From: a bacterium
Lineage (GTDB): Bacteria > UBP15 > UBA6099 > JAJRTR01
Direction of reading: 5' to 3'
Assembly: GCA_024278215.1 (NCBI GenBank)
Contig: JAJRTR010000140.1
Span: forward strand, 6,716 to 70,715
DNA: 64,000 nt
Shown: positions 27 to 36,502 of the stretch, one piece after another
Layout of the letters: each line of letters starts with the position of its first letter
Numbering within the stretch: the first letter of the stretch is position 1
The notes under the pieces: generated by a model
Told to the model about the DNA's origin: nothing
The model's database searches: none
Seen by the model: only the letters and a program-made list of their open reading frames with translations
Translations under genes and position numbers: made by a program

Positions 27-755
27 ATGAAAACTTTTAAAATAGCAGTGCTTCTTTTTTTTCTTTCAGCCGCTCTTACCTGCGTCCAGGCAACAGCAGG
101 AAAGAACGGTAGCGGAGCCTCCGAAAAACTATCCATCGAAACACTCAAGGCTGATCTCGGACTGACCGAAAATCAGGTTATATCCCTGCAAAACCTGTTT
201 AATGTTTTTTATCAGAAGAAAATCAGGCTCCTGAAGGAGATGCAGGACCTCGAGCCCCCTGCCGCTTTTGAGAAACAACAGGCAATGCAGAAAGAGTTTT
301 ACAACCGGCTGGGCAAGATACTCTCCGCCGGGCAGGTAGACAAATATAAAAAAGTTATGGGAATAAAAAAAGCCGGGACCGAGATCACGATTGACGAAAA
401 AAGTGATTCGAACGATTCGAGCAGTATACCGAGTGTAAAGCGATCAAAAGTATTTCCAAGTCTGCTTGCGTTGAAAAACCTGCTGTTTGACATCGAACTT
501 TCCGGTCTCCAGCGCGAAGCGATCGAAGAATTTTTCGCGGAGATCGAGAAGCAGGCCTCGCAAATGCAATATTGGGACCCGTCTTTCGACCCGGCGGACG
601 ACCCGAGTTTCGCCACACTTATTCAATCCAAACTCCTGTGGGTGCTCACAGAGAGCCAGTACCGGGAGTTCGCACTTCTCGCCCGGCAGAAAGACGAGAA
701 TCCGGGCGAAGTGCCTTCCGCCCCGGATTTCAACGACGACACACCGGATAACTGA
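27..755 (+). CDS. Secreted/periplasmic LTXXQ-motif protein (Spy/CpxP-like)
   Basis: Signal peptide MKTFKIAVLLFFLSAALTCVQA. Two LTxxQ-type motifs (LGLTENQVISL, VLTESQYREF) in a helical K/E/Q-rich protein. TGA stop. Confidence 0.6.
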   Translation: MKTFKIAVLLFFLSAALTCVQATAGKNGSGASEKLSIETLKADLGLTENQVISLQNLFNVFYQKKIRLLKEMQDLEPPAAFEKQQAMQKEFYNRLGKILSAGQVDKYKKVMGIKKAGTEITIDEKSDSNDSSSIPSVKRSKVFPSLLALKNLLFDIELSGLQREAIEEFFAEIEKQASQMQYWDPSFDPADDPSFATLIQSKLLWVLTESQYREFALLARQKDENPGEVPSAPDFNDDTPDN

Positions 756-785
756 CTCCCCGTGCTTCCGCGCCGGTATTGATTT

Positions 786-2102
786 TCATTTCACACTTAT
801 CTCCACCGGATGGTCGAGGATGTTCAGGTATTCGATTTCGTCGCCGCGCGCGTATTCCGGGCAGTTGTACATGATCGAGGTGAGCCGCCAGACTCCTTTT
901 GTGATTGTCTCCATCTTGCCGACATCGTAGCCGAGCGCGCCGAACTGGCCGGGTGTGTTCTCGGGCGGCTGAAGGGCGGTGATGTCGTCCATGTAGTAGA
1001 GCGACGGCACGGCCTCGAGTTCGCTGTCGAATTCAAGGCGGTTGATCCATGCGCCGCGCCTGCCTTCTTCCGTCCCATAGACCACCGACCACTTGTAGGG
1101 CGACAGGTCGAGGTTTTTCTCCGCTTCCGACATTACGCCGTCGAATACGACGCCGTCCGGATTGTTCTCGTTGATAAAAACTTTTCCACGCTGGTTTTCA
1201 TTGCCGTCGGTGATAACACGGAACTGGAACGACTCCGCCAGCAAGCCGATGTCGAAAGGCACCTGCACTTCTGTGGGGAACTCGAACGAGTCGCGGTAAA
1301 AGATGTTGTTGATAACCGATCCGGGACTCGCGATTTTCCAGAATATGACCATTTTATTATTGGTTCTGCGTATCACGCGCACCGGGCCATCGATATATGC
1401 AAGCAGGTCGCTCGTGAAATCGACTTCCGATTTTTCGATGGTGATTTTTACCATGCGGATTACGGTTTTCACGCGGATTTTCAGGCGGTCGACGGAATTT
1501 ATGCCGTTGCCGCCGCCTGCGGGGGTGATAGCGAGCGAGTCGAACCCGATGGGCGCTTCTTTGCCGAAAGAGATAATGTAATTCCAGGCGGTTACGGTGC
1601 GGGCATCTTCGGAGATCGAGACGTAGTCGACGTCCGAACGCGGTGGCGGGTTGTCGAAAGAGAAAGCGTAGAGATGTGCCGTCGCGCCGTTCAGCGGGTC
1701 GACGGCGGTGATCTCGGCGAATTTATTATATCCCGGCGGCCAGTAATCAGGCGCTGCCCGTGCGCCGAAATCCGATATCATTACTACAAGTTCGTCGTTC
1801 TTGTCGAAAAGGCCTTTGTCGACATCCTCAGATTTTTGCGGGCCGAACGGAAAAACCAGGTCGCCGTCCGGGCCACGCTCGTCTATCTGGAAAGGGACGG
1901 GGCGCATATTGCCGTCTGTGAAAGAATATACCCTGATGTTTTCATTATTTTCGCCGAGCAGGCTTTCGAGTTTTGCGCCTGCGATAATCACGGGATCGGC
2001 TACACGATCGATCCGCTTTTCCGCAGCGTGTGCCCTGGCGACTACTGTCAGCATTACGATAAATACAGTGAAGAGCTTATTTACAATATTATTAATCATC
2101 AT
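786..2102 (-). CDS. Secreted hypothetical protein (438 aa)
   Basis: Long ORF with N-terminal signal/anchor (LFTVFIVMLTVVARAHA). No family recognised by eye. The + strand ORF 810..2228 is its antisense shadow. TGA stop. Confidence 0.6.
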   Translation of the reverse strand: MMINNIVNKLFTVFIVMLTVVARAHAAEKRIDRVADPVIIAGAKLESLLGENNENIRVYSFTDGNMRPVPFQIDERGPDGDLVFPFGPQKSEDVDKGLFDKNDELVVMISDFGARAAPDYWPPGYNKFAEITAVDPLNGATAHLYAFSFDNPPPRSDVDYVSISEDARTVTAWNYIISFGKEAPIGFDSLAITPAGGGNGINSVDRLKIRVKTVIRMVKITIEKSEVDFTSDLLAYIDGPVRVIRRTNNKMVIFWKIASPGSVINNIFYRDSFEFPTEVQVPFDIGLLAESFQFRVITDGNENQRGKVFINENNPDGVVFDGVMSEAEKNLDLSPYKWSVVYGTEEGRRGAWINRLEFDSELEAVPSLYYMDDITALQPPENTPGQFGALGYDVGKMETITKGVWRLTSIMYNCPEYARGDEIEYLNILDHPVEISVK

Positions 2103-23066: not shown

Positions 23067-24131
23067 CTACGGCAACGCCAGCCTGCACCTGTCGCCGACT
23101 ACCATGTCGACGACCCGGGGCCTGCCTTTCGATTTCTCAATCACCACATTGCTGCCGATAAGGCTCGACTCGATCCTGGCGCTGACGCCGGATATCGTCG
23201 TGCTGTTCATCACGATGCTGTTTTCTATTTCACTGTTTTCTATTATTACATTCGTATCTATTGATGTATACGGTCCAACGTATGAATCGACTATTTCCGC
23301 GCCCCGCGCGATCACCACCGGTCCGCTGATCCTGCTGCGCACGACCCGCGCCCCCCTCGCGACAACTATCTCGCCGGCGAGCGAGCTTGCCTCGTCGACC
23401 CTGCCTCTTATCTCGCCCTTCACGTCATCGAGTATCGCCCTGTTGGCCTCGATCATGTCGGACTTCCGGCCCGTGTCTTTCCACCAGCCGTCTACGATAT
23501 GGTGCGTCACCTCGCAACCCATCCTGATCAACTGTGATATTGTATCCGTGATCTCGAGTTCGCCCCGTGCCGACGGTTCGATGCTTTTCGCCGCCTTGAA
23601 CACTTTCGGATTGAAGATATACACTCCGATCACGGCAAGATTCGACTTCGGTTTCCGGGGTTTCTCCTCTATGCTGACAATCTGCGGGCCTTTGACTTCC
23701 GCGACACCGAAATGCTGCGGTTCCGGCACTTCCTTGAGCATTATCGCGGCATCCTGCCCGCCCCTGCCGTATGCGTCGACAAGCCCCGTAAGACCCTTCT
23801 GGAGCAGGTTGTCGCCCAGATACAACAGGAATGTGTCGTCGCCGACAAAGTCTTCGGCGCAGAGCACCGCGTGGGCTATTCCTTTAGTCTCTGGCTGGTC
23901 TATATATGTAAACTTCATTCCCCGGTCGGCACCGTCTCCGAGCAGAGGTTCGATGTCCCCGCGGTTATCGCTCACCACGATGCCCAGTTCTTTTATGCCC
24001 ACTCCGGCAAACGCTTCGAACGCATAGTGTATCACCGGCTTATTAGCCACTGGTATCAGTTGTTTCGGAAGGGAATATGTAATCGGCCTCATTCGAGTGC
24101 CTTTACCGGCGCACAGTATCAGACCCTTCAT
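23067..24131 (-). CDS. Glucose-1-phosphate thymidylyltransferase, long form (nucleotidyltransferase + left-handed beta-helix)
   Basis: MKGLILCAGKGTRMRPITYSLPKQLIPVANKP signature. C-terminal hexapeptide-like repeats. TAG stop at the family-typical length (354 aa). Confidence 0.8.
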   Translation of the reverse strand: MKGLILCAGKGTRMRPITYSLPKQLIPVANKPVIHYAFEAFAGVGIKELGIVVSDNRGDIEPLLGDGADRGMKFTYIDQPETKGIAHAVLCAEDFVGDDTFLLYLGDNLLQKGLTGLVDAYGRGGQDAAIMLKEVPEPQHFGVAEVKGPQIVSIEEKPRKPKSNLAVIGVYIFNPKVFKAAKSIEPSARGELEITDTISQLIRMGCEVTHHIVDGWWKDTGRKSDMIEANRAILDDVKGEIRGRVDEASSLAGEIVVARGARVVRSRISGPVVIARGAEIVDSYVGPYTSIDTNVIIENSEIENSIVMNSTTISGVSARIESSLIGSNVVIEKSKGRPRVVDMVVGDRCRLALP

Positions 24132-24498
24132 TCAGAACCTCTTCTTCTGTTGCTCTATTTCCCGGCTTATTCCTCTTGAACAGTAAATCATGTGTTTTCG
24201 GCCTGTTCCGCCGTCAGAAATTTCGTACAAGTTTTAATCCATACATGTAGTATCTATTGCCCGACCTGCCATTACATATTGAAAATATATGGTTTAAATC
24301 TTCAGGTGGATGTCTCTATTCCATATCCGTATCCGTCATATTAGATCTGACACGACAGAAGTGTCGGAATTTCCGACCACCCGGTCAATAATGAATTGAA
24401 GTATATCTTTCATTTCGCTGTGTGTCAATGCAATATTTGGCCTAAATCAGGGATTTATACAGGCATTAGCAGCTCGCGATTGAAATGCCGCGCAAGAA

Positions 24499-24667
24499 GA
24501 GCCAATTGCAACATTATGTTCGTAGCGAGGTCGAGCGTAATTGTTCAGAGCAAGGCGGAGGTGTAAAATCCTCGCAGGCGTACTTGTAGAGTACGTCGAG
24601 GACGATTTTGAGCCGACAACGCAGCTATGGTGGCCCTAACGAGCAGAATTATCGTAATTCGTGGCTG
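24499..24667 (+). mobile_element. MITE-like foldback element, copy B (right end decayed)
   Basis: Left end GAGCCAATTGCAACAT and the interior match copy A. The right terminal repeat is degraded to AATTCGTGGCTG. Confidence 0.75.
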
Positions 24668-24822
24668 AACGAAAACCCTGAAAGGAAGAATTCATAAAAA
24701 GTGCAAACGAAGATATGTCACGCTCTTTCCAGTTATTATGGGATATGGGATGTAGATATCGTCTCGACTGTTGTTTGTGCTGTTTTTACTTTGATTCAGG
24801 CTGCTCATATTGTTGCAAATAT

Positions 24823-25530
24823 TCAATGGGCGCTAAGATCGTTCATCGCGTGCTCGACTATCTCATAATCTTCCGGCGTATCCACATCAAGCGAATAAAT
24901 ACGATCATATTCCACGAATCCGACATTCCTGCCGAGGTATACGTGTACGCCGGTACGCCCTTCCGTGGCGAACAGCACGGATGCGCGGACAGCCATTACA
25001 GCCCCGTCCAGCAGATAGAGGTCGGGCAGCAGTTGGCGGCGATAATCCCCGCACTCCATGAACGGTACGAGCGCGCCGTTCTCGTCTGCACGCTTCATCC
25101 ACTCCGGCCTCTGGTTTACCCTGAATGCCGACACGACGGAATCGTATTCTGAATTCACGAGTTTTTCAATAATTTCATCAATTGCGCCCGGTTTCCGCAC
25201 GGGGACATTTGTCTGCATCAACACCGCCACATCAGTCTTCACACCTTCCTGCGCCTCGAGGTGTCTCACAACATGACGGAGCGAATCCTCGATGGCGGCG
25301 GTATCGCCGGAAATATCTTCAGGCCGCCGGACGACCTCCGCCCCGAACTCACGCGCCACGGCTGCGATGTCGTCCGCGTCGGTGGATACTATCACCCTGT
25401 CGAGCTTCTCCGCCGCCCGCGCCGCCTCGATCACATAGCCTATCATCGGTTTGCCGTTTATCGGTTTTATATTTTTTCCCGGCAATCCTTTACTGCCGCC
25501 GCGCGCCGGTATGATTCCAACTATGTACAT
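24823..25530 (-). CDS. Acylneuraminate (CMP-sugar) cytidylyltransferase family protein
   Basis: IIPARGGSKGLPGKNIKPINGKPMIGY motif of CMP-NeuAc/CMP-Kdo-type synthetases. 235 aa. Confidence 0.8.
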   Translation of the reverse strand: MYIVGIIPARGGSKGLPGKNIKPINGKPMIGYVIEAARAAEKLDRVIVSTDADDIAAVAREFGAEVVRRPEDISGDTAAIEDSLRHVVRHLEAQEGVKTDVAVLMQTNVPVRKPGAIDEIIEKLVNSEYDSVVSAFRVNQRPEWMKRADENGALVPFMECGDYRRQLLPDLYLLDGAVMAVRASVLFATEGRTGVHVYLGRNVGFVEYDRIYSLDVDTPEDYEIVEHAMNDLSAH

Positions 25531-26030: not shown

Positions 26031-26402
26031 TCACAACTCCTCGAGCAGCATGGCGCCTTCGTCGGGAGTAAGGTCGCCCCTTTTTATTGAATCTATGATC
26101 TCGCGACGCCTTTTCCTGAGTGTCTCGGGGTCCGGTTTCCTGGCATTCGACAATTTTGCGATAACCAGGTCCAGCTTGTTCCTCACAGTAGGATAGGAAA
26201 GCCCAAGCCTTTTTTCCATTTCTTTTATGTTTCCGCGGCTGATCACAAACAGTTCCACAAAACGCGATTCTTCATCCGCCAGTGTCGAAAAAACACCGTG
26301 GCCGAATTCTCCTTCAATTGCAGTACCGCATTTCTTACATGTCAGCCTTGTTATCACCAGTTCGCTGTCGCAAACCGGACACTGGCTTACTGCCGGTTTC
26401 AT
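26031..26402 (-). CDS. DUF2089-like zinc-ribbon/HTH protein
   Basis: CPVCDSELVITRLTCKKCGT zinc ribbon, then SRGNIKEMEKRLGLSYPTVRNKL HTH, then a SHOCT-like tail (IKRGDLTPDEGAMLLEEL). ATG 26402 is preceded by GAGAGGA. Confidence 0.65.
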   Translation of the reverse strand: MKPAVSQCPVCDSELVITRLTCKKCGTAIEGEFGHGVFSTLADEESRFVELFVISRGNIKEMEKRLGLSYPTVRNKLDLVIAKLSNARKPDPETLRKRRREIIDSIKRGDLTPDEGAMLLEEL

Positions 26403-26442
26403 CTTTGTTATTGTCCTCTCTGTGGAAAATCCCAAGTCTATC

Positions 26443-26810: not shown

Positions 26811-27242
26811 ATGACAGAACAACAGCAAAAGAGAAATGTGCTGGTCGTTGAAGATGACCACGATACAAACGAGATGATTTCAGATATTCTAAGCCGGGCA
26901 GGATATGCACCTCTTGCGGCCTTCAACGGGGAAACCGGGGTGAAGATCGCAAAGACTGAAAAACCCGACTTGATCCTCCTCGACCTGATGTTGCCGGATA
27001 TTGACGGACTTGAGGTATGCAGGCAACTCGCAGGTAACGAAAATACACGCTCCATTCCCATCATCGTTCTCACATGCAAAAAAGAATTATCCACCAAGCT
27101 GTCTTCATTTGTCGCAGGTGCAAAGCGTTTCCTCACCAAACCATTCGACGACAAAGAACTGTTGAACGAAATAAGCCGCACTCTGCGCCAGAAAAACATG
27201 CAGGCACATGACGGCAGCAACTTTATCGAACCACGTGACTAG
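26811..27242 (+). CDS. Single-domain response regulator (CheY-like receiver)
   Basis: VLVVEDD...DLILLDLMLPDIDG...TKP receiver motifs. TAG stop. Confidence 0.85.
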   Translation: MTEQQQKRNVLVVEDDHDTNEMISDILSRAGYAPLAAFNGETGVKIAKTEKPDLILLDLMLPDIDGLEVCRQLAGNENTRSIPIIVLTCKKELSTKLSSFVAGAKRFLTKPFDDKELLNEISRTLRQKNMQAHDGSNFIEPRD

Positions 27243-27340
27243 TTTGATTCCCGCCAGCTATCTTTTCTGTTCCTGATAATTCAAGCGTCAGACAAAAATC
27301 CGCATGTTCCAACGGCGCAGGTTTGTGTCGCCCGGCAGGG

Positions 27341-28033
27341 TTACTCTTCATCCACCGGATAGGAGAAATAGGCGGCCGCTTCGGTGTTGTTGGGATCGAG
27401 AATGAGGACAGACCAGAAGATGCTGTCGGCGGCCTCATAATCTTCCTGAGCTTCCTTGTTCAGGGCGAGTTCGGTGAGGAAAGAGACATCGGTGGGGAAG
27501 AGTGCGAGCATTTCTTTGACGAGTTTTTCGGCGGTTTCGTATTTTCCCTGCATTCTGAGCGAATAAGCAAGCCTCAGACTGGCGAGATAGTTGTTGTCGT
27601 CGGCGCTCAGCACCTGGTATGCAAGCTGTTCCACATCGCTGTATTTCTGCTGGGCAAGAAGGGGAAGCATGCAGCCGATTTTCGCTTCGAGCGATGCCGG
27701 CGCTGTTTTGATCACCGCCTTGTAGTAGTCGACCGATTCGTCATAAGACTTATTCAGGTAGTTGAGCCAGGCGAGACGCAGGTTGACTGTGTAGCCGTCG
27801 GAATAGAGTTCGTAGACAGGGTCCAGCGCGGCGATGGCTTCGTCGTAGTCGCCGTCCTTCTCGTAGTCATAGGAGTCGTAATACGCATTCTGTATGTCGG
27901 TTGCCGCGAGCTTCGTGTCTTGCGAACGGGTTACGCTGGAAGTTGTGAAGACAAGAAGTGCAGCGCCGAGCAGTATTGCGAGTCCGAAAAACTTCGAGTC
28001 GAATAATGTGTTTGTCTTTTGCGGTTGTTTCAT
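27341..28033 (-). CDS. Secreted TPR-repeat protein
   Basis: N-terminal anchor FFGLAILLGAALLVF. Repeated A-x-x-x-Y/A-x-x-A TPR pattern. RBS AGAGGGG. Confidence 0.7.
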   Translation of the reverse strand: MKQPQKTNTLFDSKFFGLAILLGAALLVFTTSSVTRSQDTKLAATDIQNAYYDSYDYEKDGDYDEAIAALDPVYELYSDGYTVNLRLAWLNYLNKSYDESVDYYKAVIKTAPASLEAKIGCMLPLLAQQKYSDVEQLAYQVLSADDNNYLASLRLAYSLRMQGKYETAEKLVKEMLALFPTDVSFLTELALNKEAQEDYEAADSIFWSVLILDPNNTEAAAYFSYPVDEE

Positions 28034-28143
28034 GATGTACCCCTCTTTCTTGTTGTGTTTGTCCGGCTTATGCGTTATTGAAAAACGTGCCGAATCGCGT
28101 TGATTCGCGCGAGTTTCAGTTGCTCAAAAATAACACGGAACAA

Positions 28144-29007
28144 TCAATTGAACGTATGCCCGAGCATGAGCGTGTAGCTTGTTGATGTGGCGGTGTTGTC
28201 GGAGCTGGTGTCGTCGAAACGTGTCCGGTTCGCGCCGAGCGTGAGACTGTATAGCTCGGATAGAGCATAGTTGAATTTCACACCGAAACCGCCCCTCAGG
28301 AGTTCCGCTTTGTTGCTGACAACAAAGCCGTCGTTGCCGACACTGAACGCCTGCTTGCCGACCCATCCTGAAACAGTTGTAGTAAGTTTGTCCCGGTAGA
28401 ACGTGAATGACTGCTCGGCGGAGAAATAATTCTGCTCGTGGAGATCGGCTTTCTTGGTAAGGTTGATAAGGTTTAACTGCGTAAGGGCATAAATGTTCCT
28501 TTTCGATTTCAGAGTCCGACCGGCCTTGTATGAAATCTGGAAGGCCATGAGGCTCGGCTCGAAATTGTTGTATGAAGAAACGTAGAGATCGAACTGCGAG
28601 TATCTGTCGGTGCGGCTGTAGTCCCCTGTGCCGCCGAACAGGGTGATCACGTTATATTCGTTGATGCTCGCGGTAACAAAATGACCGCCGAAGCGGGTTT
28701 TCTTTTCTTTTGTATAATTTGTGAGTACGAACGTGTAGTCGCGCTGGTCGTAGTCATAGCCCGACCAGTAGTCGATATTGGTGATGTCCATACCAAACTC
28801 ATAAGACCTGTTGTCGCCGATGCCGCGATAGAAATAGAAACCGGATGTTTCGGCGCTGTCCTTATAGATCGAATTGTCGTAGCTGATAGGCACAAGGTAG
28901 ATCATGCCGCTGGTTGTAGTTGTTGTGGTGGTATCCAGCGCGGCGGCGGGCATAGCGAAGAAAACAAGCGCTATGACCATGGCGATATTACTTGCGAATC
29001 TTTTCAT
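28144..29007 (-). CDS. Putative outer-membrane beta-barrel protein
   Basis: ATG 29007 (MKRFASNIAMVIALVFFAMPAAA) is preceded by AGGAGA. Alternating-hydrophobic, Y/G/S/T-rich sequence. The start overlaps the upstream gene by 20 nt. Confidence 0.55.
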   Translation of the reverse strand: MKRFASNIAMVIALVFFAMPAAALDTTTTTTTSGMIYLVPISYDNSIYKDSAETSGFYFYRGIGDNRSYEFGMDITNIDYWSGYDYDQRDYTFVLTNYTKEKKTRFGGHFVTASINEYNVITLFGGTGDYSRTDRYSQFDLYVSSYNNFEPSLMAFQISYKAGRTLKSKRNIYALTQLNLINLTKKADLHEQNYFSAEQSFTFYRDKLTTTVSGWVGKQAFSVGNDGFVVSNKAELLRGGFGVKFNYALSELYSLTLGANRTRFDDTSSDNTATSTSYTLMLGHTFN

Positions 29008-31210
29008 TCTCGTTTCTCCTGAATTCGTATTCGCCGGCGACGATTCTCTTGAAGCCGACCTGATCGTCGAGTTCGACATGTGTCTTTATGTCGACACCGA
29101 GCGTCTTCGACCTGACGCTGCCCTCGATAGTGTTTCTGCCGGTAAAGTGCAGGCGGCAATCGACGCGTGCGAGGTCGAACTTAAAGGAATTAAGGAAGAG
29201 GAAGAACTCCCTGCGCGGCCCCGTCACGACCGACCCCACCGGCAGGCGGTCACACCATGACATGTCGTTCATCTGCAGCAGCGGCAGCCTGGGCACTGCC
29301 ATGAATATGTGTTTCAGGTACTTGTCTGCGCCCTGTGTGTGATAGATATAGAAAGTGTCTTCATGCCTGCCGAAGTAGAGGCGGCCCCTGCCGGAATCGA
29401 AATAAAATGTTCCGTCCGGCGCCATCTTCACTTTCAGGCGTAGTTCATCTATCCTGCGACCTGCCCTGTACACATCATACACGAAACTGTCGTCGAGCAT
29501 AAACGACATCCTTGTTTCAATGCTTTTTTCAGGGTTAAGTGTCTCGATCTCTGTTTTTTCTTCAGGTAGTCCGTTGGCGAAAAACTTTTTGTCCTTGAGA
29601 TAATTCGAGAAAGTGAAGGGGATAGTAGCCGAGCCGACGCCCTCCGCGGCCTGCGCCTGAACGTGGATGTGCGGCTGCGGCGAGTAGCCCGAGTTGCCGC
29701 ATTTGCCCAGAAGCGCACCTTTCTCGACCCACTGTCCTTCGACAACCCTGATTGAATCGTGCGCGAAGTGCGATATCTCGACATAGAAAGCGCGCTCGTC
29801 CCTGATAATCACAAGGTTGCCCCATGTGTTGGACTTGTCGATCGTGCCGATGGGGTTGTCCGGCAGATTCGCGACGACCTTGACAACGCGCCCGCGGATG
29901 GGCGACAGAACGCTTTTCCTGTAAGCGTAGTAGTCCTCGAGTTCGCCGCCGCTGTCGCGACGGCTGCGACCGTCCGCGTCGACGATGATGAAATCATAAG
30001 CGTGGCGCCAGCTCCCCCTGTGTGTCCATTCTCCGTCGAAGCCCTGCCACACATGCCATTTGCCGGTGAACGGCAGCGCGATCGTCAATCCCGCGGCACC
30101 GAACCGCCGCGAGCCGGCGATAAAGTAATCCAGCGTTTCCTCCGGTGTCGATTTTATGTATCTCGCCACCATCGGATTGTGCACGACTCCCAGTACATAG
30201 ACGAATGACATCGTGATGAAGTTGAACGGGATCGTGAAGCCCGGTATTCCATAGTATGACCAGAAAACTTCCATCGCTTTGAGCAGCAACGTCGACACGA
30301 GAACCGCGACAATGGCAAGCGCGTAGCTCCTGACCGACGGCACGAGAAAGATGCCACCTATCGCCATTGCAATCAATATGTAATTGAAATGGAATATGTT
30401 CGAGAACGCCTGTTCGAACGAACCCGTGAGGCAGCCGGTCATGATCGTGCCTGTGTAATAGCCCACCACGGCGAGCATGAAAAGTATTCGCGAGCAGCAC
30501 AGTATTACCAGCGTAATCGCTATGCCGGGCAGAACATAGGGTAGAAGAAATATCGTACCCATCGACTTGAAGAAACCGGAGAGCCAGAGCGGCAGATACC
30601 ATTGCAGGCCTGATGTCCAGTGGCTGTAGAAACCGCCCGCAAAAAGGTTCGCGTAGTTGGACGACGCCAGATATGTGACGGACGCCACGATCGCGAAAGG
30701 CAGGCTGAGTATGGGCAGTTTGAAGTTGTAATAGAAAAAACTGTTGAGCATTATGGACAGCAGAAGTGTGAATATACCGGCTGTGATCACGATGAAAACA
30801 GTGAGCATGGAAAGCTTGAAAAGAAAACCGACGGCGAGCCCCGAAAGCAGCGGGTTGTATGTGTAGAAGCCGGAATTGAGAAAGGTTTCGTCCATGTTGA
30901 TAAGCTTTGCGAAGGCGTATGCGGCCATGACGGAGATGATCCCCGAAACGGCGATATTCGGATTGAAAAGTGTGATCAGGAAAAAGATAAGGCCGATTGG
31001 CGCGCTGTTGAAGAAGAGTATTTCCGAGTAGCTTTTTACGATGGCGGTCAGGTGGAGCGCGAGAGTCGAGTTGTTGAAACGTGCTGTGAGCGACGACAGG
31101 GTGGACTCGCCGCCCGGCGCGCCCGGCGAGAACCGGCCGGCTTCATTGTTCCCGTTTTGACCTGTTCCAGCCGGTGGCTCGAATGAAAGTTGACCCGGCG
31201 TTTGTGTCAT
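28988..31210 (-). CDS. Urea-transporter-family membrane domain fused to an M23 peptidase domain plus a C-terminal domain
   Basis: The multi-TM N-terminal half (ILFFNSAPIGLIFFLITLF...YTYNPLLSGLAVGF) resembles the UT family. M23 block HAYDFIIVD...GNLVIIRD...HFAHDS...GNSGYSPQPHIHVQ. Confidence 0.75.
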   Translation of the reverse strand: MTQTPGQLSFEPPAGTGQNGNNEAGRFSPGAPGGESTLSSLTARFNNSTLALHLTAIVKSYSEILFFNSAPIGLIFFLITLFNPNIAVSGIISVMAAYAFAKLINMDETFLNSGFYTYNPLLSGLAVGFLFKLSMLTVFIVITAGIFTLLLSIMLNSFFYYNFKLPILSLPFAIVASVTYLASSNYANLFAGGFYSHWTSGLQWYLPLWLSGFFKSMGTIFLLPYVLPGIAITLVILCCSRILFMLAVVGYYTGTIMTGCLTGSFEQAFSNIFHFNYILIAMAIGGIFLVPSVRSYALAIVAVLVSTLLLKAMEVFWSYYGIPGFTIPFNFITMSFVYVLGVVHNPMVARYIKSTPEETLDYFIAGSRRFGAAGLTIALPFTGKWHVWQGFDGEWTHRGSWRHAYDFIIVDADGRSRRDSGGELEDYYAYRKSVLSPIRGRVVKVVANLPDNPIGTIDKSNTWGNLVIIRDERAFYVEISHFAHDSIRVVEGQWVEKGALLGKCGNSGYSPQPHIHVQAQAAEGVGSATIPFTFSNYLKDKKFFANGLPEEKTEIETLNPEKSIETRMSFMLDDSFVYDVYRAGRRIDELRLKVKMAPDGTFYFDSGRGRLYFGRHEDTFYIYHTQGADKYLKHIFMAVPRLPLLQMNDMSWCDRLPVGSVVTGPRREFFLFLNSFKFDLARVDCRLHFTGRNTIEGSVRSKTLGVDIKTHVELDDQVGFKRIVAGEYEFRRNENEKIRK

Positions 31211-31355
31211 CGTTACTTACCTCTTATTTGTTGCTTTGAGTCGAAAAATTTTCAAAGTGAAAGCCGTAGCTTCCGGAGCCTGCGTTCGCAAGGTGGACCT
31301 TGGGAACGAGTGAAAAAAACAATCAAAGTGGGCGGGTGCGCCGTGCCTCGCCTTT

Positions 31356-31380
31356 ATCCCGCATATTTCACCAATGCGGG
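31356..31380. repeat. 24-25-nt hairpin motif, copy 1 (downstream flank of the PqqD/ATP-grasp/decarboxylase cassette)
   Basis: ATCCCGCATATTTCACCAATGCGGG. The stem is CCCGCAT/ATGCGGG. The only other copy I found is inverted, at 34483..34506. Confidence 0.6.
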
Positions 31381-31578
31381 CAAAAATCGGGAGAATGCCT
31401 GTAATACAAGGCGCGGCAAATGAGTGGTGAGGGAGCATACTGTCAGGTATGTGACCGATCCCGAATCGCCGCCGCAACGCGGTAGAACAGGCGTTATCGC
31501 GATTTTCCGGTTTTCTTTGTGAGAAATCCGGGTTATACATCTTGCGCATTTTAAAGTGTGACATGGCACTATCATTTC

Positions 31579-32931
31579 TCAGTCGAGAACCAGCCTTTCC
31601 GGCAGTCGTTCGCGGCGTTCGATGTCGGAGAGGTCTTCCGCCTCGCGTATAACGTCGACCTGACCGTCCTCGCCAATCAGCACCACGTTGGGCCTGTACT
31701 CGATGAACTGCATCCACTGCGTCACATTATACGCGCCGACCGGCGATATGATAAGGCGCACGCCTCGCTTTAGAGGCGGAAGTTGCACGCTTTCGTCGAT
31801 CACGTCGATGTTCATGCACATGGGTCCGTAGATGACCGAGTTTTCGTTGGGGCCGCTCACTTCGCGGTCCATCTCGATGTTGAACTTGTACCAGTTGGAT
31901 GTGAACAGGACATTTATGCCGCCGTCGATGATGTAGGAGCGTCGGCCGTCGGGCAGTCGTTTTGTCGCAATAACAGTGGATATCAGGTAGCCTGCTTCCT
32001 CGACCATTGCGCGGCCCGGTTCGAGAATAAGCTTCGGTGTGTCGCCCGGCCTGAGACTGTTGTAGAGCGCGTCTGTTATCCGCTCCGCGTACTCGTCGAT
32101 TGACGGTATCGCAATATCAGGCGGCAGGTAGATGCCTTTGAGCCGGTTTTTTGTGGGCAGCCCGCCGCCGATGTCCAGGTATTCGATTTCGTAGTTAAAC
32201 TTATCTTTAAGTTCATAAGAGAACCTGACCATCTTCTCGACTTCCACCGCGTATGCGTTCGGTTCCATAATGAAAGTGCCGATATGACAGTGGAGACCGC
32301 GGATTTTGAGGTGCCCACGCGAGTAGATTCTCTTAACGGCATCCATCGCCTGGCCGGAATCGAGGTTGAAGCCGAAACGCGACCACTGCGGTTTGATGCC
32401 GGTGTCCATGTTGAGGCGGATACCGATGCCGACCTGCCTGCCTTCCCCGGCGGCGATCTGCTCGAGGTCCGCGATCTCGTCGAGATGGTCCACGTGTATC
32501 ATCGCCCCCTCGCGCACAGCCGTTCTCAGCGCGGCCGGCGACTTGTGCGGCCCGTTGAAGATAATGTCCTCGCCCGCGATGCCCAGCTTGCGTGCCTTGT
32601 CGTATTCCATCCCCGAGACGACCTCGGCGATAGCGCCTTCCTGGTGCATCACGGCGCAGATGGCCGAGATGTAATTGGTTTTGTACGACCAGCCGAATGT
32701 GACATCCGGGTAGCGCGTCGAGAACGCGCCGCTCACCTCGCGGAACTTAGCCCGCAACGCCTTCTCGGAGAATACGAACAGGGGCGAGCCGTATTCTTTC
32801 GCCAGCTCGTCGACAGTCACCCCGTCGATCTCCGTACACACCCTCTTCATATACGCTGGACTGTTCCCATACTTGTTCATCAGGCCCGTGCGCAGCCTCT
32901 TTATTACCGGTTTTTCATACAGCATCTTCAT
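31579..32931 (-). CDS. Type III PLP-dependent decarboxylase (Orn/DAP/Arg decarboxylase family)
   Basis: PLP-lysine context WSYKTNY, plus GLHCHIGT, DIGGGLP, EPGRAMV and YGPMCMNID motifs. The start overlaps the ATP-grasp gene by 17 nt. Confidence 0.85.
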   Translation of the reverse strand: MKMLYEKPVIKRLRTGLMNKYGNSPAYMKRVCTEIDGVTVDELAKEYGSPLFVFSEKALRAKFREVSGAFSTRYPDVTFGWSYKTNYISAICAVMHQEGAIAEVVSGMEYDKARKLGIAGEDIIFNGPHKSPAALRTAVREGAMIHVDHLDEIADLEQIAAGEGRQVGIGIRLNMDTGIKPQWSRFGFNLDSGQAMDAVKRIYSRGHLKIRGLHCHIGTFIMEPNAYAVEVEKMVRFSYELKDKFNYEIEYLDIGGGLPTKNRLKGIYLPPDIAIPSIDEYAERITDALYNSLRPGDTPKLILEPGRAMVEEAGYLISTVIATKRLPDGRRSYIIDGGINVLFTSNWYKFNIEMDREVSGPNENSVIYGPMCMNIDVIDESVQLPPLKRGVRLIISPVGAYNVTQWMQFIEYRPNVVLIGEDGQVDVIREAEDLSDIERRERLPERLVLD

Positions 32932-33982
32932 GGCAGTATTCCCCCGTTGTGACTATTTCCTGAAATGGTTTCATGTCCGTAACAACTTCATAAGTGTACC
33001 TTACATAGAGCTTGCCCGACTCGTAGTCGCGTGCCTTCGGGATAGGCATATCAAACGCACTGCGCAACATGTTCGACGGGAGATTCACACCGACTCCTGT
33101 CGCGAAAAACGACCATGCGGGCAGCCTCGGGTTGATCTCGATCAGGTATACCTCACCGCTGTCGACCATGCACTCAAGCTCGAACGCGCCTTTCCACTTA
33201 TATTCGGAAATGAACTTCGCCGCCGCTTCGAGCATCTCCTCGTTCCTGATTGTCACGCCGGTCCATATCTTGCCGAGTGAAGTGACCCCCATCTTTTTTA
33301 TGCCGACCATGCCGAGATTTTCGCCCGTGCCGTCGCCCAGTCCGACAACATTAAGCTCTTCGCCTTTCACCATCTGCTGCACTATTATCGGGTAGCCCCA
33401 TTCGGCGACAATCGAGTTGTAGTAGCTCGCCGCCTGCATCGACGTGTACGCGCAATACGCTTTGTAGAACGCGCCCTTGATCATGACCGGATATCCGATT
33501 TCGTCCAGCGCGGACTGCAAGTCTTCGTGTGATGAAACAACTCTCGTGGCCGGGATTCTTATGCCGATGGTTTTCGCCACATCCTCGAGGCGGTCTTTGC
33601 CCCTGAGCCTGAACTGCTCCATAGTCGGCACGACCGTTTTTATACCCATATTTTCGAGTTCTTCGCCATATTTTGTGAAGAATGGCAGCTCGACATCGAG
33701 CGAAGGGATGACAAAATCCAGCCCGTATGTCGACTTGATATACGCGAGACGTTCCATGTAGGCGTCGCGCCCGCCGGACGGGTAAGGCATGATGTAGGAC
33801 TTGTCCATCAGCCAGTCCAGATATATGCCCGGCTCCATCGCGTCGTATGCGAGGCCGACGACTTTCACATTCAATTCACTGTCTTCCCGGAGCGACCTCG
33901 CCACCCCGACACCCGGGCCGGGATTGTCGACCGCGTTGATTCCCGTTACGCCGATAATCAGGTCTTTCACGCTGCACCTCAC
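32915..33982 (-). CDS. ATP-grasp ligase (carboxylate-amine/thiol ligase superfamily)
   Basis: GYPVMIKGAFY, PIIVQQMVKGEE, VYLIEINPRLPAW ATP-grasp blocks. The GTG start overlaps the PqqD-like stop (GTGA). Confidence 0.8.
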   Translation of the reverse strand: MRCSVKDLIIGVTGINAVDNPGPGVGVARSLREDSELNVKVVGLAYDAMEPGIYLDWLMDKSYIMPYPSGGRDAYMERLAYIKSTYGLDFVIPSLDVELPFFTKYGEELENMGIKTVVPTMEQFRLRGKDRLEDVAKTIGIRIPATRVVSSHEDLQSALDEIGYPVMIKGAFYKAYCAYTSMQAASYYNSIVAEWGYPIIVQQMVKGEELNVVGLGDGTGENLGMVGIKKMGVTSLGKIWTGVTIRNEEMLEAAAKFISEYKWKGAFELECMVDSGEVYLIEINPRLPAWSFFATGVGVNLPSNMLRSAFDMPIPKARDYESGKLYVRYTYEVVTDMKPFQEIVTTGEYCHEDAV

Positions 33983-34317
33983 AGTAGTTTGATGTATCTC
34001 AACTGGTCGACAAAGTCGGTCGCGTCGCGCTCCGCCTCATCTTTCTCAACGATAAAAAGTTCCGTCAGTCTCAGGGCTATCTCCTCCATCGTTTTTCTCT
34101 CCTTCAGCCCTTTCAGAACTTCGAGTCCCGTACTGTTGACGGTAAAACTCTCGCCGGTCGTCGGGTCGAACACGAAACCTTCTTCATTTATTGCCAGAAG
34201 ATACAGGCGTCCCATTTCTGCGCCTTCGACCACCGCCGCTCCCTCGCGGGGTTCCGCCGCGGGCAGGCCATTCTCCGGACCTGAAACCCGCCCGGTTTCC
34301 GATTCCATGTTATCCAT
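33979..34317 (-). CDS. PqqD-family (RiPP-recognition-element-like) small protein
   Basis: The core FVFDPTTGESFTVNSTGLEVLKGLKERKTMEEIALRLTELFIVEKDEAERDATDFVDQLRYIKLL fits the PqqD pattern. The G/E/A/P-rich 34-aa N-terminal extension may not be translated (alternative ATG at 34215). Confidence 0.65.
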   Translation of the reverse strand: MDNMESETGRVSGPENGLPAAEPREGAAVVEGAEMGRLYLLAINEEGFVFDPTTGESFTVNSTGLEVLKGLKERKTMEEIALRLTELFIVEKDEAERDATDFVDQLRYIKLL

Positions 34318-34325
34318 TTGTTTCG

Positions 34326-34451
34326 TCAGCGTACTTGCGTCCCGAGGAGTACGAGCGATCCGCAGATAAAATGCAGGTTCGCGTTCGTGAAGTGCGGATC
34401 AGCATCTTCCGGCACCGATATTGCCGCCGCCGTCAATAATAATGTGTCCAT
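34326..34451 (-). CDS. Candidate 41-aa ORF just upstream of the PqqD-like gene (speculative)
   Basis: Hand translation gives MDTLLLTAAAISVPEDADPHFTNANLHFICGSLVLLGTQVR, ending 8 nt before the PqqD-like ATG. No clear RBS. Below the ORF-track length cutoff. Confidence 0.2.
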   Translation of the reverse strand: MDTLLLTAAAISVPEDADPHFTNANLHFICGSLVLLGTQVR

Positions 34452-34482
34452 GTTGACCGCGCACCGGTGGATCGGCACTTAA

Positions 34483-34506
34483 CCCGCATTGGTAAAATAT
34501 GCGGAT
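34483..34506. repeat. 24-nt hairpin motif, copy 2 (upstream flank of the cassette, inverted)
   Basis: CCCGCATTGGTAAAATATGCGGAT is the reverse complement of ATCCGCATATTTTACCAATGCGGG. It differs from copy 1 by one indel and one mismatch. Confidence 0.6.
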
Positions 34507-34729
34507 TGATGCTTTTGTACAGGACGTTTCCGCCGCCCCTTCCCGTAAGATTTAAAAATTCATCCGCAAATTTTTATTGTGCACTCGAATGAATTGTTGC
34601 AAACAAAAAACCTGTGGCCTATTCATGTGAGGATTCAAGCGAATGATTATATTCATATCCTATATGATACGAATATCTGCTGAAAAGTTAAATCAAATCT
34701 GTGTGATGTTGGTCACAACGAAATCCGGG

Positions 34730-36127
34730 TTAGCCGCTTACGGCGCGATAAGGACCCGCGCATCTTCCGGGACTGTCGCCCGGAAGATGGGGCATAATCA
34801 CAACCTCGCCGCCCAGGCCACCGGAGACAGGTTCAGTGATCCGGCAGACGACCAACTTACCCATAAGTTCATCGTCACCTTCCGCGTATATGCGCAAATA
34901 ATTTCTCGTCAGACCTGTGAGCAGGCCGTTTTTGCCGTCGCGGCGTTTCTCGAAAAGGACTTCCAACTCCCTGCCGATGAAACGCGCCCGGAATCTCGCC
35001 GCCAGTTCCCCGCGCAAAGCCCTCATTCTCAAGCTACGGTTCTTTTTGATTTCCTCCTGCACCTGACCGGGCATCTCCGCCGCCGTCGTGCCCGGTCTCT
35101 TCGAGTATCGAAATACGTGCATGTAACCCAGCGAAAGTCTGTCAGCAAGTTTATATGTTTCATCGAACGCCGCTTCTGTTTCGCCCGGAAAGCCTACTAT
35201 CACATCCGCGCCCACATTGACATCCGGGAACATGTCCCGTAGCCGCAACACCGTTGTCGCGAACTCGTCCGCAGTGTAGTCGCGTTTCATGGCCCTGAGT
35301 ATCCCGTCGTCTCCGCTCTGGAGTGAAATGTGGAAGTGGTCGCAGAGTTTGTCCCTCACGGCATCGAGTGTCTCGAACAGTTCTTCGCTGAATTCTTTCG
35401 GGTCTATGGAACTTAGCCTGATGCGGGAGAGCCCCTCGACTTCATATAAGCGGCGCAGCAGCGCTGCAAGTGTTGTGCGCGGCTCGAGGTCAAGCCCGTA
35501 ACGCCCGATATGGATACCGACGACCACGACTTCCCTGTAGCCGTTGGCGGCGAAACGCTCGGCCTGGGCGATCACTTCGCCAGTCGGCGCGCTCCGGCTC
35601 CTGCCCCTCGCGTACGGTACGATGCAATAAGAACAGCGCTTGTTGCAGCCTTCGTGTATGCGCAGGAACGCTTTCGTGTAATTCGCGAACGAGTCGACCG
35701 GCGCCGGCCTGAACTCGCGTTCATCGAAAATGTCGGGGACCGCCGGCATCGGCACAGGTCCCGACTCATTGCTTACGAGTTGCTCCAGCATGTTCGGGAT
35801 TTCCTCTTTTCGCGCGCTTCCGACGACGAGGTCCAGCCCCGGAAGCTCCCGCCGCACATCTTCCGGATGTGTCTGCGGATAGCAGCCCGCGACAACGACG
35901 CGCACCCCCGGGCACCGCTCCTTGTGCTTGAGCGCGCGCCTGACCATCTGGCGTGCCTGGTGGTCGGTCTTTCCGGTCACCGAGCACGTGTTCACAACGT
36001 AAACATCCGCCTCTTCACGAAAAGGCACTGTTGTGTAGCCCGACCGCTCGAACGCTTCCCTTATCGCTTCACTGTCCACCTGATTGAGCTTGCAGCCAAG
36101 TGTGTATATCGCAACTTTTTTTGTCAT
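34730..36127 (-). CDS. mtaB: MiaB/MtaB-family radical-SAM tRNA methylthiotransferase
   Basis: N-terminal KVAIYTLGCKLNQVDSE...VYVVNTCSVT. Radical-SAM CNKRCSYC. C-terminal TRAM-like GRELEVLFEK...GKLVVCRITE. Confidence 0.8.
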   Translation of the reverse strand: MTKKVAIYTLGCKLNQVDSEAIREAFERSGYTTVPFREEADVYVVNTCSVTGKTDHQARQMVRRALKHKERCPGVRVVVAGCYPQTHPEDVRRELPGLDLVVGSARKEEIPNMLEQLVSNESGPVPMPAVPDIFDEREFRPAPVDSFANYTKAFLRIHEGCNKRCSYCIVPYARGRSRSAPTGEVIAQAERFAANGYREVVVVGIHIGRYGLDLEPRTTLAALLRRLYEVEGLSRIRLSSIDPKEFSEELFETLDAVRDKLCDHFHISLQSGDDGILRAMKRDYTADEFATTVLRLRDMFPDVNVGADVIVGFPGETEAAFDETYKLADRLSLGYMHVFRYSKRPGTTAAEMPGQVQEEIKKNRSLRMRALRGELAARFRARFIGRELEVLFEKRRDGKNGLLTGLTRNYLRIYAEGDDELMGKLVVCRITEPVSGGLGGEVVIMPHLPGDSPGRCAGPYRAVSG

Positions 36128-36291
36128 TATACAACAACCTTTTTTCTGAAAAACACCGGTCTTACTGAAGAAGGCACAGCCTATGAAGAAACAAGAAACG
36201 ATGACCTGCGTCGATGCAGACTTTGCACAGAACCTGCACGCATTTTATCGCACAGGATCATTCAGGTAAAGAGATCGCTTGAAGAGAAACA

Positions 36292-36307
36292 GAGCCAATT
36301 GCAAATA
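36292..36307. repeat. Solo left-end terminal repeat of the foldback element
   Basis: GAGCCAATTGCAAATA matches the first 14 nt of the TIR, then diverges. Confidence 0.55.
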
Positions 36308-36396
36308 AAGAATAATATTCACAGGATTACTCCTTGCGTCTTTTTCATCATTGGCGCGACGCAAGTTACCGATACGGAAATATTTTTTCATACTTA

Positions 36397-36425
36397 TTGA
36401 CACCTGGCGATATTATGTATATTCT
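36397..36425 (+). promoter_or_regulatory. Sigma70-type promoter candidate for the Rrf2-led redox locus
   Basis: TTGACA - 17 nt - TATTCT, about 80 nt upstream of the Rrf2 start. Confidence 0.5.
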
Positions 36426-36428
36426 GGA

Positions 36429-36457
36429 ATAAAGACCAGTGAAGCGATGGTCTTTAT
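36429..36457. promoter_or_regulatory. Perfect 10-bp inverted repeat (candidate operator / 5' hairpin)
   Basis: ATAAAGACCA - 9 nt - TGGTCTTTAT, immediately downstream of the -10 element. Confidence 0.45.
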
Positions 36458-36502
36458 GGTCACCATGGCAACTATAACTACAATAGGGGCGGAGAAGACA
36501 CT

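Follow-up and report, generated by a model that had tools for sequence, protein, structure and literature searches.

A PqqD-family protein predicted to dock on the N-terminal tail of a decarboxylase in a widespread six-gene cassette

We analyzed a 64,000-nucleotide stretch of bacterial DNA (hereafter “the window”), focusing on three consecutive minus-strand genes that encode a small PqqD-family protein, an ATP-grasp ligase, and a decarboxylase dependent on pyridoxal 5′-phosphate (PLP). This trio is not a stand-alone unit; it is the cytoplasmic enzyme core of a widespread six-gene cassette. PqqD proteins share the fold of the recognition elements (RREs) that bind leaders in pathways for peptides that are made on ribosomes and modified after translation (RiPPs). 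Structure predictions indicate that the PqqD protein of this cassette seems to bind the decarboxylase’s own N-terminal tail rather than a separate peptide. As a plausible but tentative reading, we propose a pathway that ligates and then decarboxylates its substrate to yield an amine or amide, with the RRE protein serving as an assembly adaptor on an enzyme-borne leader and with further handling at the cell envelope.

The cassette is arranged in the order PqqD, ATP-grasp ligase, PLP decarboxylase, and a fusion of a urea-transporter-like channel to an M23 peptidase (UT::M23), usually followed by an outer-membrane barrel protein and a tetratricopeptide repeat (TPR) protein. We compared 80 genome loci with 80 metagenome loci, the latter set including more diverged subfamilies. 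The grouping of the trio, which an earlier note on this DNA had proposed from the window alone, holds across genomes: the 80 genome loci preserve the sequence of genes PqqD, ATP-grasp, decarboxylase, UT::M23 and span Aquificota, Calditrichota, Ignavibacteria, Verrucomicrobiota, Planctomycetota, Gemmatimonadota, Desulfobacterota, Thermotogota, and Thiomargarita, among others; the same gene order recurs in the 80 metagenome loci wherever the contig is long enough. Median spacings across loci are 10 nt between the PqqD and ATP-grasp genes, −4 nt between the ATP-grasp and decarboxylase genes, and 25 nt between the decarboxylase gene and the base at which alignment of the UT::M23 gene starts; this last gap is unusually long in the window, at 368 nt. 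The gene arrangement is far beyond chance. At least 587 species representatives, drawn from many phyla, encode a close relative of the ATP-grasp ligase (54-69% identity). Because only one of the 13 genomes (species) of the window’s own phylum carries the cassette, its distribution follows the pattern of an accessory trait, and this suggests that the cassette behaves as a transferable unit. In the family alignments, ligase columns average 69% identity and decarboxylase columns 70%, and this strong conservation of the enzymes points to one fixed substrate.

The small protein matches the PqqD profile, as its initial assignment had implied, with a score of 46.7 bits to PF05402 (cut-off 23.4; E = 4e-12). 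Its best NCBIfam match is a lasso B1-type PqqD protein; the lasso B1 models, whose cut-offs are 70 and 80, score 40.9 and 18.5 bits. Within the family, only G13, F16, G21, and F68 are invariant, and the C-termini vary. The earlier note had left two roles for this protein, that of a carrier and that of a chaperone for a free peptide. The first is unsupported, given the absence of a conserved attachment residue in the PqqD family, and the second is undercut by the absence of a conserved small open reading frame (ORF) accompanying the cassette: no small ORF family is present in more than 6 of the 80 genome loci, a result that leaves room for an unlinked precursor of another sequence type. We also rejected a 41-aa ORF (34326-34451) as a candidate precursor; it has no homologue in the 80 loci and lies 110 nt, not 8 nt, upstream of the PqqD start as corrected below.

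The decarboxylase bears an N-terminal extension of ~23-32 residues, of which the first ~21-28 are left unaligned by both FigC and M. jannaschii LysA. This tail contains two elements, Y5-E-K-P8-V-I10 and N19-K20-x-G22, in which P8 and N19 are invariant; conservation reaches at least 90% at Y5, E6, K20, G22, and R32. The more general pattern [YWF]xxPx[ILMVF] is present in all 122 PqqD-paired decarboxylases (122/122). When the whole genome was searched with a hidden Markov model (HMM) of the tail, only the window’s decarboxylase matched (E = 3.7e-17; next best 0.3). Lasso peptide leaders contain the motif YxxPxL (PMC10368454), and the start of the tail, Y5-E-K-P8-V-I10, fits this motif. More distant tail-bearing subfamilies are without K20, having NTFG, NPF, NHFG, or NSFG at this element. 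A comparison of the tail’s aromatic residue (Y/W/F) with PqqD alignment columns had only 11 W and 4 F cases to draw on, and these are apparently clade-bound. A metagenome scan that started from a tail-less decarboxylase brought back only cassette members that bear the tail. As a separate observation, five metagenome loci (L120, L144, L156, L157, and L160) represent a diverged subfamily with the tail LPYSPPTITRHLSGQNSAANRN, which keeps YxxPxI and has lost the NKFG element.

Prediction of a complex between PqqD and the full-length decarboxylase gave an ipSAE of 0.64 (median of three runs), compared to 0.00 for the best control, on a scale whose calibration is rough here, with our own alignments supplied: the mark is reached by 58 of 80 solved complexes and by 2 of 110 mismatched pairs. 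Agreement between runs covered at least 84% of contacts, with a partner pLDDT of at least 82. In the predicted interface, decarboxylase residues 2-13 and 15 pack against PqqD residues 22-30, 50-56, and 61-72. We infer that these PqqD residues would form the groove between the β3 strand and helix that RREs use for leader peptides.

The decarboxylase itself matches Orn_Arg_deC_N (E = 7e-34), with scores of 117.7 bits to PF02784 and 48.7 bits to PF00278 (Orn_DAP_Arg_deC), both over their cut-offs. Its catalytic set, comprising K84, H216, G255-257, E304, R307, and C372, is invariant in the family. The PLP lysine K84 (SYKTNY), the GGG at 255-257, and the EPGR at 304-307, from which activity had been proposed at the outset, are present and are invariant in 63 family members. 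Judged by its residues, the decarboxylase is a working enzyme, with every catalytic residue kept. It is not LysA: it scores 235.9 bits to the lysA model TIGR01048 (cut-off 297.9), and the true lysA lies elsewhere in the genome, at 431.8 bits and over that cut-off. The score to NF041039, the model for the N-citrylornithine decarboxylase FslC/FigC, is 230.4 bits against a cut-off of 500. FigC/FslC is the closest solved relative (204 bits, compared to 148 bits for M. jannaschii LysA), and BtrK is also a homologue (89 bits).

In an alignment to 1TWI, the diaminopimelate (DAP)-binding CES sequence is replaced by C372-M373-N374 and the arginine of DAP decarboxylases by T344, and these replacements are invariant in the family. 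In LysA, the CES loop and this arginine of the specificity helix contact the distal L-centre of DAP. The FigC residues H357 and R387, which bind citrate (PMC7857480), align to I375 and Q405. The residues at the far end of the pocket are uncharged, with T344, W347, Y348, M373, N374, Q405, and Q408 invariant and I375 at least 90% conserved. These positions differ from those of both LysA and FigC, and a conserved, uncharged pocket implies that the substrate is neither free diaminopimelate nor a citryl-amino acid. Their conservation points to a fixed substrate, whose distal part is probably uncharged, for example amide-linked. FigC, SbnH, AcsE, MccE, and BtrK all decarboxylate substrates that have already been ligated and form one clade with the DAP decarboxylases; unassigned members of this clade have been argued to belong to specialized metabolism (PMC7857480). 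The analogy to BtrI/BtrJ/BtrK drawn in the earlier note is therefore borne out in part: its ligate-then-decarboxylate logic fits, with FigC as the closest solved relative, but the role of the small protein as a carrier does not.

Several ATP-grasp Pfam models match the ligase, and its best NCBIfam match, “carbamoyl phosphate synthase-like”, falls far under the cut-off; NCBIfam holds no model for any member of the cassette. An AlphaFold model of the ligase (pLDDT 91) was compared to known folds with Foldseek, which returned 2PN1 (function unknown) as the best match, followed by biotin carboxylases, carbamoyl-phosphate synthase, and PurT; only generic ATP-grasp enzymes were returned, none of them informative on function. 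Ligases of the MdnB/MdnC type (graspetide, microviridin-type) are not among the top Foldseek matches, a statement that covers the matches listed. A metagenome representative of 871 aa, P0138, fuses a homologous ATP-grasp domain to a homologous decarboxylase domain (34% and 43% identity, respectively). Between the two lie a low-complexity linker of ~55 residues and then, directly before the decarboxylase domain, the tail motif (AYVRPSI). Though a single record, this apparent fusion supports joint action of the ligase and decarboxylase. It surfaced in the decarboxylase search; when longer proteins were searched for fused ATP-grasp forms, the only one to come up was an unrelated protein of 709 aa.

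The three minus-strand ORFs described for the trio are present in the window (33979-34317, 32915-33982, and 31579-32931), and the 17-nt overlap between the end of the ATP-grasp gene and the start of the decarboxylase gene is seen in the sequence. Two of the start codons are better placed elsewhere. In alignments of the small protein, M35 coincides with the first residue of its homologues, whose median length is 78 aa; the gene most likely starts at 34215, giving a protein of this length in place of the 112-aa ORF reaching to 34317, and the 34 N-terminal codons of the longer ORF are probably not translated. The GTGA sequence at 33979-33982, in which the PqqD stop and the ATP-grasp start were thought to overlap, does exist, but it is probably wrong as the ATP-grasp start. 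A GAGGTG ribosome-binding site spans the PqqD stop codon just upstream of a GTG at 33970, and the database record for this ligase is 351 aa long, compared to 355 aa for the ORF counted from GTGA. The GTG at 33970 is most likely the true start, in which case the two genes would be separated by an 8-nt spacer instead of overlapping at GTGA. Even with the corrected start, the PqqD and ATP-grasp genes remain tightly coupled.

Table 1. Positions in the window of the cassette genes and associated features, with the basis for each assignment.
Feature	Position	Strand	Basis
PqqD-family (RRE-type) protein, 78 aa	33979..34215	-	PF05402; homologue starts
ATP-grasp carboxylate-amine ligase, 351 aa, CPSase/biotin-carboxylase-like subgroup	32915..33970	-	ATP-grasp Pfam models
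Alanine-racemase-fold PLP decarboxylase, 450 aa, FigC/FslC-like	31579..32931	-	Pfam; catalytic residues
Decarboxylase N-terminal tail, residues 1-32, predicted PqqD docking site	32836..32931	-	conservation; complex prediction
UT::M23 membrane protein, 740 aa	28988..31210	-	Pfam UT + Peptidase_M23
Predicted outer-membrane beta-barrel protein with signal peptide	28144..29007	-	translation shows MKRFASNIAMVIALVFFAMPAAA from M25
TPR protein, N-terminal membrane anchor or signal sequence, last conserved cassette gene	27341..28033	-	TPR Pfam models
REP-like hairpin repeat copy in decarboxylase-UT::M23 gap	31359..31380	.	partner copy 34483-34504

The earlier note had stated that no protease or transporter is adjacent to the trio, and this does not hold: the next gene (28988-31210) encodes the urea-transporter::M23 peptidase fusion, which lies downstream in almost every sufficiently long locus (68 of the 80 genome loci and most metagenome loci of sufficient reach). 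The protein is laid out as a urea-transporter-like channel (residues ~55-368), an M23 zinc peptidase (~375-560), and an open β-barrel (~567-736). Its channel domain scores 210.3 bits to PF03253 (cut-off 25; E = 4.5e-62) and 76 bits to dvUT (3K3F), and it misses the NCBIfam equivalog urea_trans_yut (113 bits vs 274.6). The paired FN motifs and the central Ser/Thr-x-P-F motifs are kept. Based on these matches, UT::M23 is a member of the urea transporter family, with urea transport itself only putative. One pore-helix signature is degenerate, with dvUT GEVMFQDN aligning to GTIFLLPY in the window.

The peptidase domain of UT::M23 scores 38.1 bits to Peptidase_M23 (cut-off 28.7; E = 1.8e-9) and structurally resembles DipM (Z = 14.2; r.m.s.d. 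5.1 Å over 138 aligned residues), EnpA (Z = 14.0; r.m.s.d. 2.7 Å over 125 aligned residues), and LytM (Z ~14). Residues H53, D62, H137, H170, and H172 (A5 numbering) are invariant and would act as metal ligands or catalytic residues. There is no extra membrane helix between the UT and M23 domains, and the flanking charges fit a cytoplasmic C-terminus. Based on the topology of urea transporters, the M23 peptidase is probably cytoplasmic. The C-terminal part of the protein (residues ~567-736, encoded by 28988-29520) is confidently modeled as an open β-barrel and has no Pfam match; its resemblance to a Parabacteroides lipoprotein (4FVS), to vitellogenin/ApoB barrels, and to LolA-like proteins is only moderate (Z = 6-9), and we therefore draw no function from it. 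The outer-membrane barrel protein also has no Pfam match; its gene shares 20 nt with the end of the UT::M23 gene and has homologues downstream in 44 of the 80 loci. The TPR protein has a hydrophobic N-terminus, and TPR proteins are the only further gene family common to many loci (49 loci).

In the pathway that we tentatively propose, the ATP-grasp ligase would use ATP to join a carboxylate to an amine, as expected from the chemistry of its family, with one of the two partners an amino acid that keeps its α-amino and α-carboxyl groups free. The FigC-like decarboxylase, by homology and by its active-site residues, would then strip the α-carboxyl group from the ligated product to yield an amine or amide. 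The 78-aa PqqD protein is predicted to dock in the manner of an RRE on the [YWF]xxPx[ILMVF] tail of the decarboxylase; it would act neither as a carrier nor, probably, as a holder of a free precursor, and its docking would most likely keep the ligase and decarboxylase together. Finally, the conserved gene order suggests that the product or a precursor may be handled by the urea-channel-like protein, the outer-membrane barrel, and the TPR protein.

Several points weigh against this proposal. The complex score may reflect likeness to solved complexes of lasso B1 proteins with leaders, and it shows likeness rather than binding. The ATP-grasp ligase has no functionally characterized close relative in the fold search, and P0138, the sole fusion found, could be an artefact of assembly or gene calling. 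It is not obvious why a small-molecule pathway should call for an adaptor of the RRE type, for an M23 peptidase in the cytoplasm, or for a pore like that of urea transporters. Moreover, known urea transporter pores are narrow, and one of the two pore-helix signature residues is lost here (E187 of dvUT corresponds to T219, and to Ala in the family consensus).

A rival reading is a RiPP pathway with lasso-like logic, which we judge unlikely. Here PqqD would present a leader, the M23 domain would be the leader peptidase, and the ATP-grasp enzyme would make an amide or isopeptide, acting on an unlinked precursor peptide or on the decarboxylase tail itself. This would account for the lasso B1-type protein as PqqD’s best NCBIfam match, for a tail motif equal to the lasso leader motif YxxPxL (PMC10368454), for a predicted PqqD-tail docking mode that is the mode of RREs with leaders, and for the conservation of the tail past the docking motif (N19, K20, and G22). 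It would also give a task to an M23 peptidase that has its invariant residues, is predicted to be cytoplasmic, and is fused to a channel. However, we found no conserved small ORF in or near the 80 loci and no other tail-like sequence in the genome, and identities of 60-70% across phyla are rare for RiPP enzymes. A decarboxylase that retains its full catalytic set is a functioning enzyme, not a precursor to be discarded, and K20 is lost in the more distant tail-bearing subfamilies. A PLP decarboxylase, moreover, requires a free α-amino acid, which a peptide backbone does not offer. Quite improbable in our estimate is carrier-linked iterative chemistry, in which an amino acid such as Glu or Asp would be ligated through its side chain to an amine on the decarboxylase tail and decarboxylated while tethered; the cycle might repeat to give an oligo- or polyamide, cut by M23 and exported via the channel, the TPR protein, and the barrel. 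Its appeal lies in the homology of the decarboxylase to BtrK (89 bits) and in BtrJ being an ATP-grasp enzyme (PMC7857480). The uncharged decarboxylase pocket is also what an amide-linked chain would lead one to expect. A TPR protein paired with an outer-membrane barrel resembles synthase-dependent polymer export, and small planar solutes of the amide type, urea among them, pass through channels of the urea transporter family. Against this, no attachment residue is conserved in PqqD, distant subfamilies do not keep the tail lysine, and the polymer is proposed by analogy. A more specific proposal, to which we assign a very small probability, has the RRE grip the decarboxylase tail as a tethering arm while repeated rounds of ligation and decarboxylation build an unbranched oligo- or polyamide, which M23 would release and which would thread through the UT pore and the TPR protein and barrel.

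Murein-peptide chemistry, which we consider very unlikely, would have the decarboxylase act on the free D-centre of a meso-diaminopimelate that is amide-bound at its L-centre, while the ATP-grasp ligase and M23 peptidase build or trim a murein-derived peptide. The decarboxylase does fall within the DAP decarboxylase clade, its residues at the L-centre are neutral as expected for a blocked centre (CES to CMN, Arg to T344), and M23 is a family of murein peptidases. But the M23 domain is predicted to be cytoplasmic, the cassette contains no Mur-ligase or murein-recycling genes, the enzyme is nearer to FigC than to LysA, and the RRE protein would be left without a role. An origin in primary metabolism, with a LysA paralogue and a carbamoyl-phosphate-synthase-like enzyme lying beside a small gene by chance, is suggested by database names such as “carbamoyl-phosphate synthase large subunit” and by the lysA HMM match of 236 bits. 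Both matches are under their curated cut-offs, the true lysA is elsewhere, the DAP-binding residues are lost, and the gene order is fixed in 160 loci, with the cassette in 1 of 13 genomes of its own phylum. We regard this reading as excluded by the missed cut-offs, the separate lysA, and the fixed gene order, with next to no probability left to it. The possibility, raised in the earlier note, that the two enzymes are a well-characterized primary-metabolism pair is refuted by the separate true lysA and the sub-threshold score of the window copy.

The regions flanking the cassette contain several features that do not belong to it. A hairpin motif of 21-22 nt, CCGCATATTTCACCAATGCGG, occurs on both sides of the trio and was considered as a cassette-specific pair, a view ruled out by its ~192 copies in the 4.5-Mb genome (86 forward and 106 reverse, against 0 in a reversed control). 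CCGCATATTTCACCAATGCGG represents a dispersed repeat family, similar to repetitive extragenic palindromic (REP) elements, that occupies intergenic gaps including both flanks of the trio. An Rfam scan of 27000-36500 gave no match at E values up to 0.1. The radical S-adenosylmethionine (SAM) gene upstream (34730-36127) was likewise rejected as a cassette member; it encodes MtaB, a housekeeping tRNA methylthiotransferase (424 bits, over the cut-off), and is found near the cassette in only 1 of the 80 loci. Downstream of the cassette lie genes for a DUF2089 zinc-ribbon/helix-turn-helix protein and for the nucleotidyltransferases CTP_transf_3 and NTP_transferase (26031-26435 and 23067-25530, both on the minus strand), which are not conserved with the cassette in other loci. 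Elsewhere in the genome, at L174 (C175:28572-31772), a second, classical PqqD gene (59 bits; ORF 1477-1770, minus strand) lies directly upstream of a radical-SAM/SPASM enzyme (404-1480, minus strand). This pair is of the canonical RiPP type, is unrelated to the cassette, and is preceded by a 150-aa ORF with no Pfam match.

The trio matched no described system in our literature search, outside which most subscription journals fell, in line with the earlier note, and the cassette as a whole apparently has no description in the literature searched. RRE/PqqD domains serve as a universal marker for ribosomal peptide natural-product clusters. An RRE that occurs in at least 587 species and appears to bind an enzyme-borne motif would lead genome-mining tools to misfile these loci as precursor-less RiPP clusters. 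If the docking of PqqD on the tail is true, nature would here recruit an entire enzyme in the way that leaders are recruited. Also present in the cassette is a fusion of a urea-channel fold with a zinc peptidase of predicted cytoplasmic orientation, a pairing for which we know of no role. Strong conservation combined with a patchy spread over diderm phyla, ranging from Aquificota of hot springs to Verrucomicrobiota of soil, suggests that the trait is transferable and has one defined product. Were the tethered oligo- or polyamide proposal to be correct, the cassette would make a class of secreted biopolymer not known before and put both the RRE and the UT fold to a new use.

Parts of the cassette resemble several known systems. 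Like dvUT, UT-A, and UT-B, the product of the gene following the trio has a full UT domain with signature motifs; unlike these urea transporters, it continues into an M23 peptidase and an open β-barrel, one of its pore-helix signatures is degenerate, and no urease or urea-metabolism genes lie alongside. The two enzymes are closest in logic to the FslA/FslC (FigA/FigC) route to rhizoferrin and to the systems of SbnH and AcsE, in which ATP-dependent ligation of an acid to an amino acid is followed by α-decarboxylation by an enzyme of the DAP decarboxylase clade. In FigA/FigC and other siderophore pathways independent of non-ribosomal peptide synthetases (NIS), however, the ligase is an IucA/IucC-type NIS synthetase, whereas that of the window is an ATP-grasp enzyme. 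FigC has the citrate-binding residues H357 and R387 where the window’s decarboxylase has I375 and Q405, and the tail is left unaligned in FigC. NIS pathways also lack a PqqD partner, a UT::M23 protein, a barrel, and a TPR protein.

BtrI/BtrJ/BtrK of butirosin side-chain biosynthesis share with the trio an ATP-grasp enzyme, a decarboxylase of the DAP decarboxylase clade, a small protein of ~80-90 aa, and decarboxylation after ligation. BtrI, however, belongs to the acyl carrier proteins and has a phosphopantetheine thiol, while the small protein of the window has a PqqD/RRE fold without a conserved attachment residue and is predicted to bind the tail non-covalently. The likeness to the lasso B1 RRE lies in the best NCBIfam match, the [YWF]xxPx[ILMVF] motif, and the predicted binding groove. 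The lasso B2 transglutaminase-type protease and the Asn-synthetase-like cyclase have no homologue among the conserved cassette genes, where an M23 peptidase and an ATP-grasp ligase stand in their places. Finally, a lasso leader is part of a short precursor, whereas the “leader” in the window is the N-terminus of a full-size, catalytically intact enzyme.

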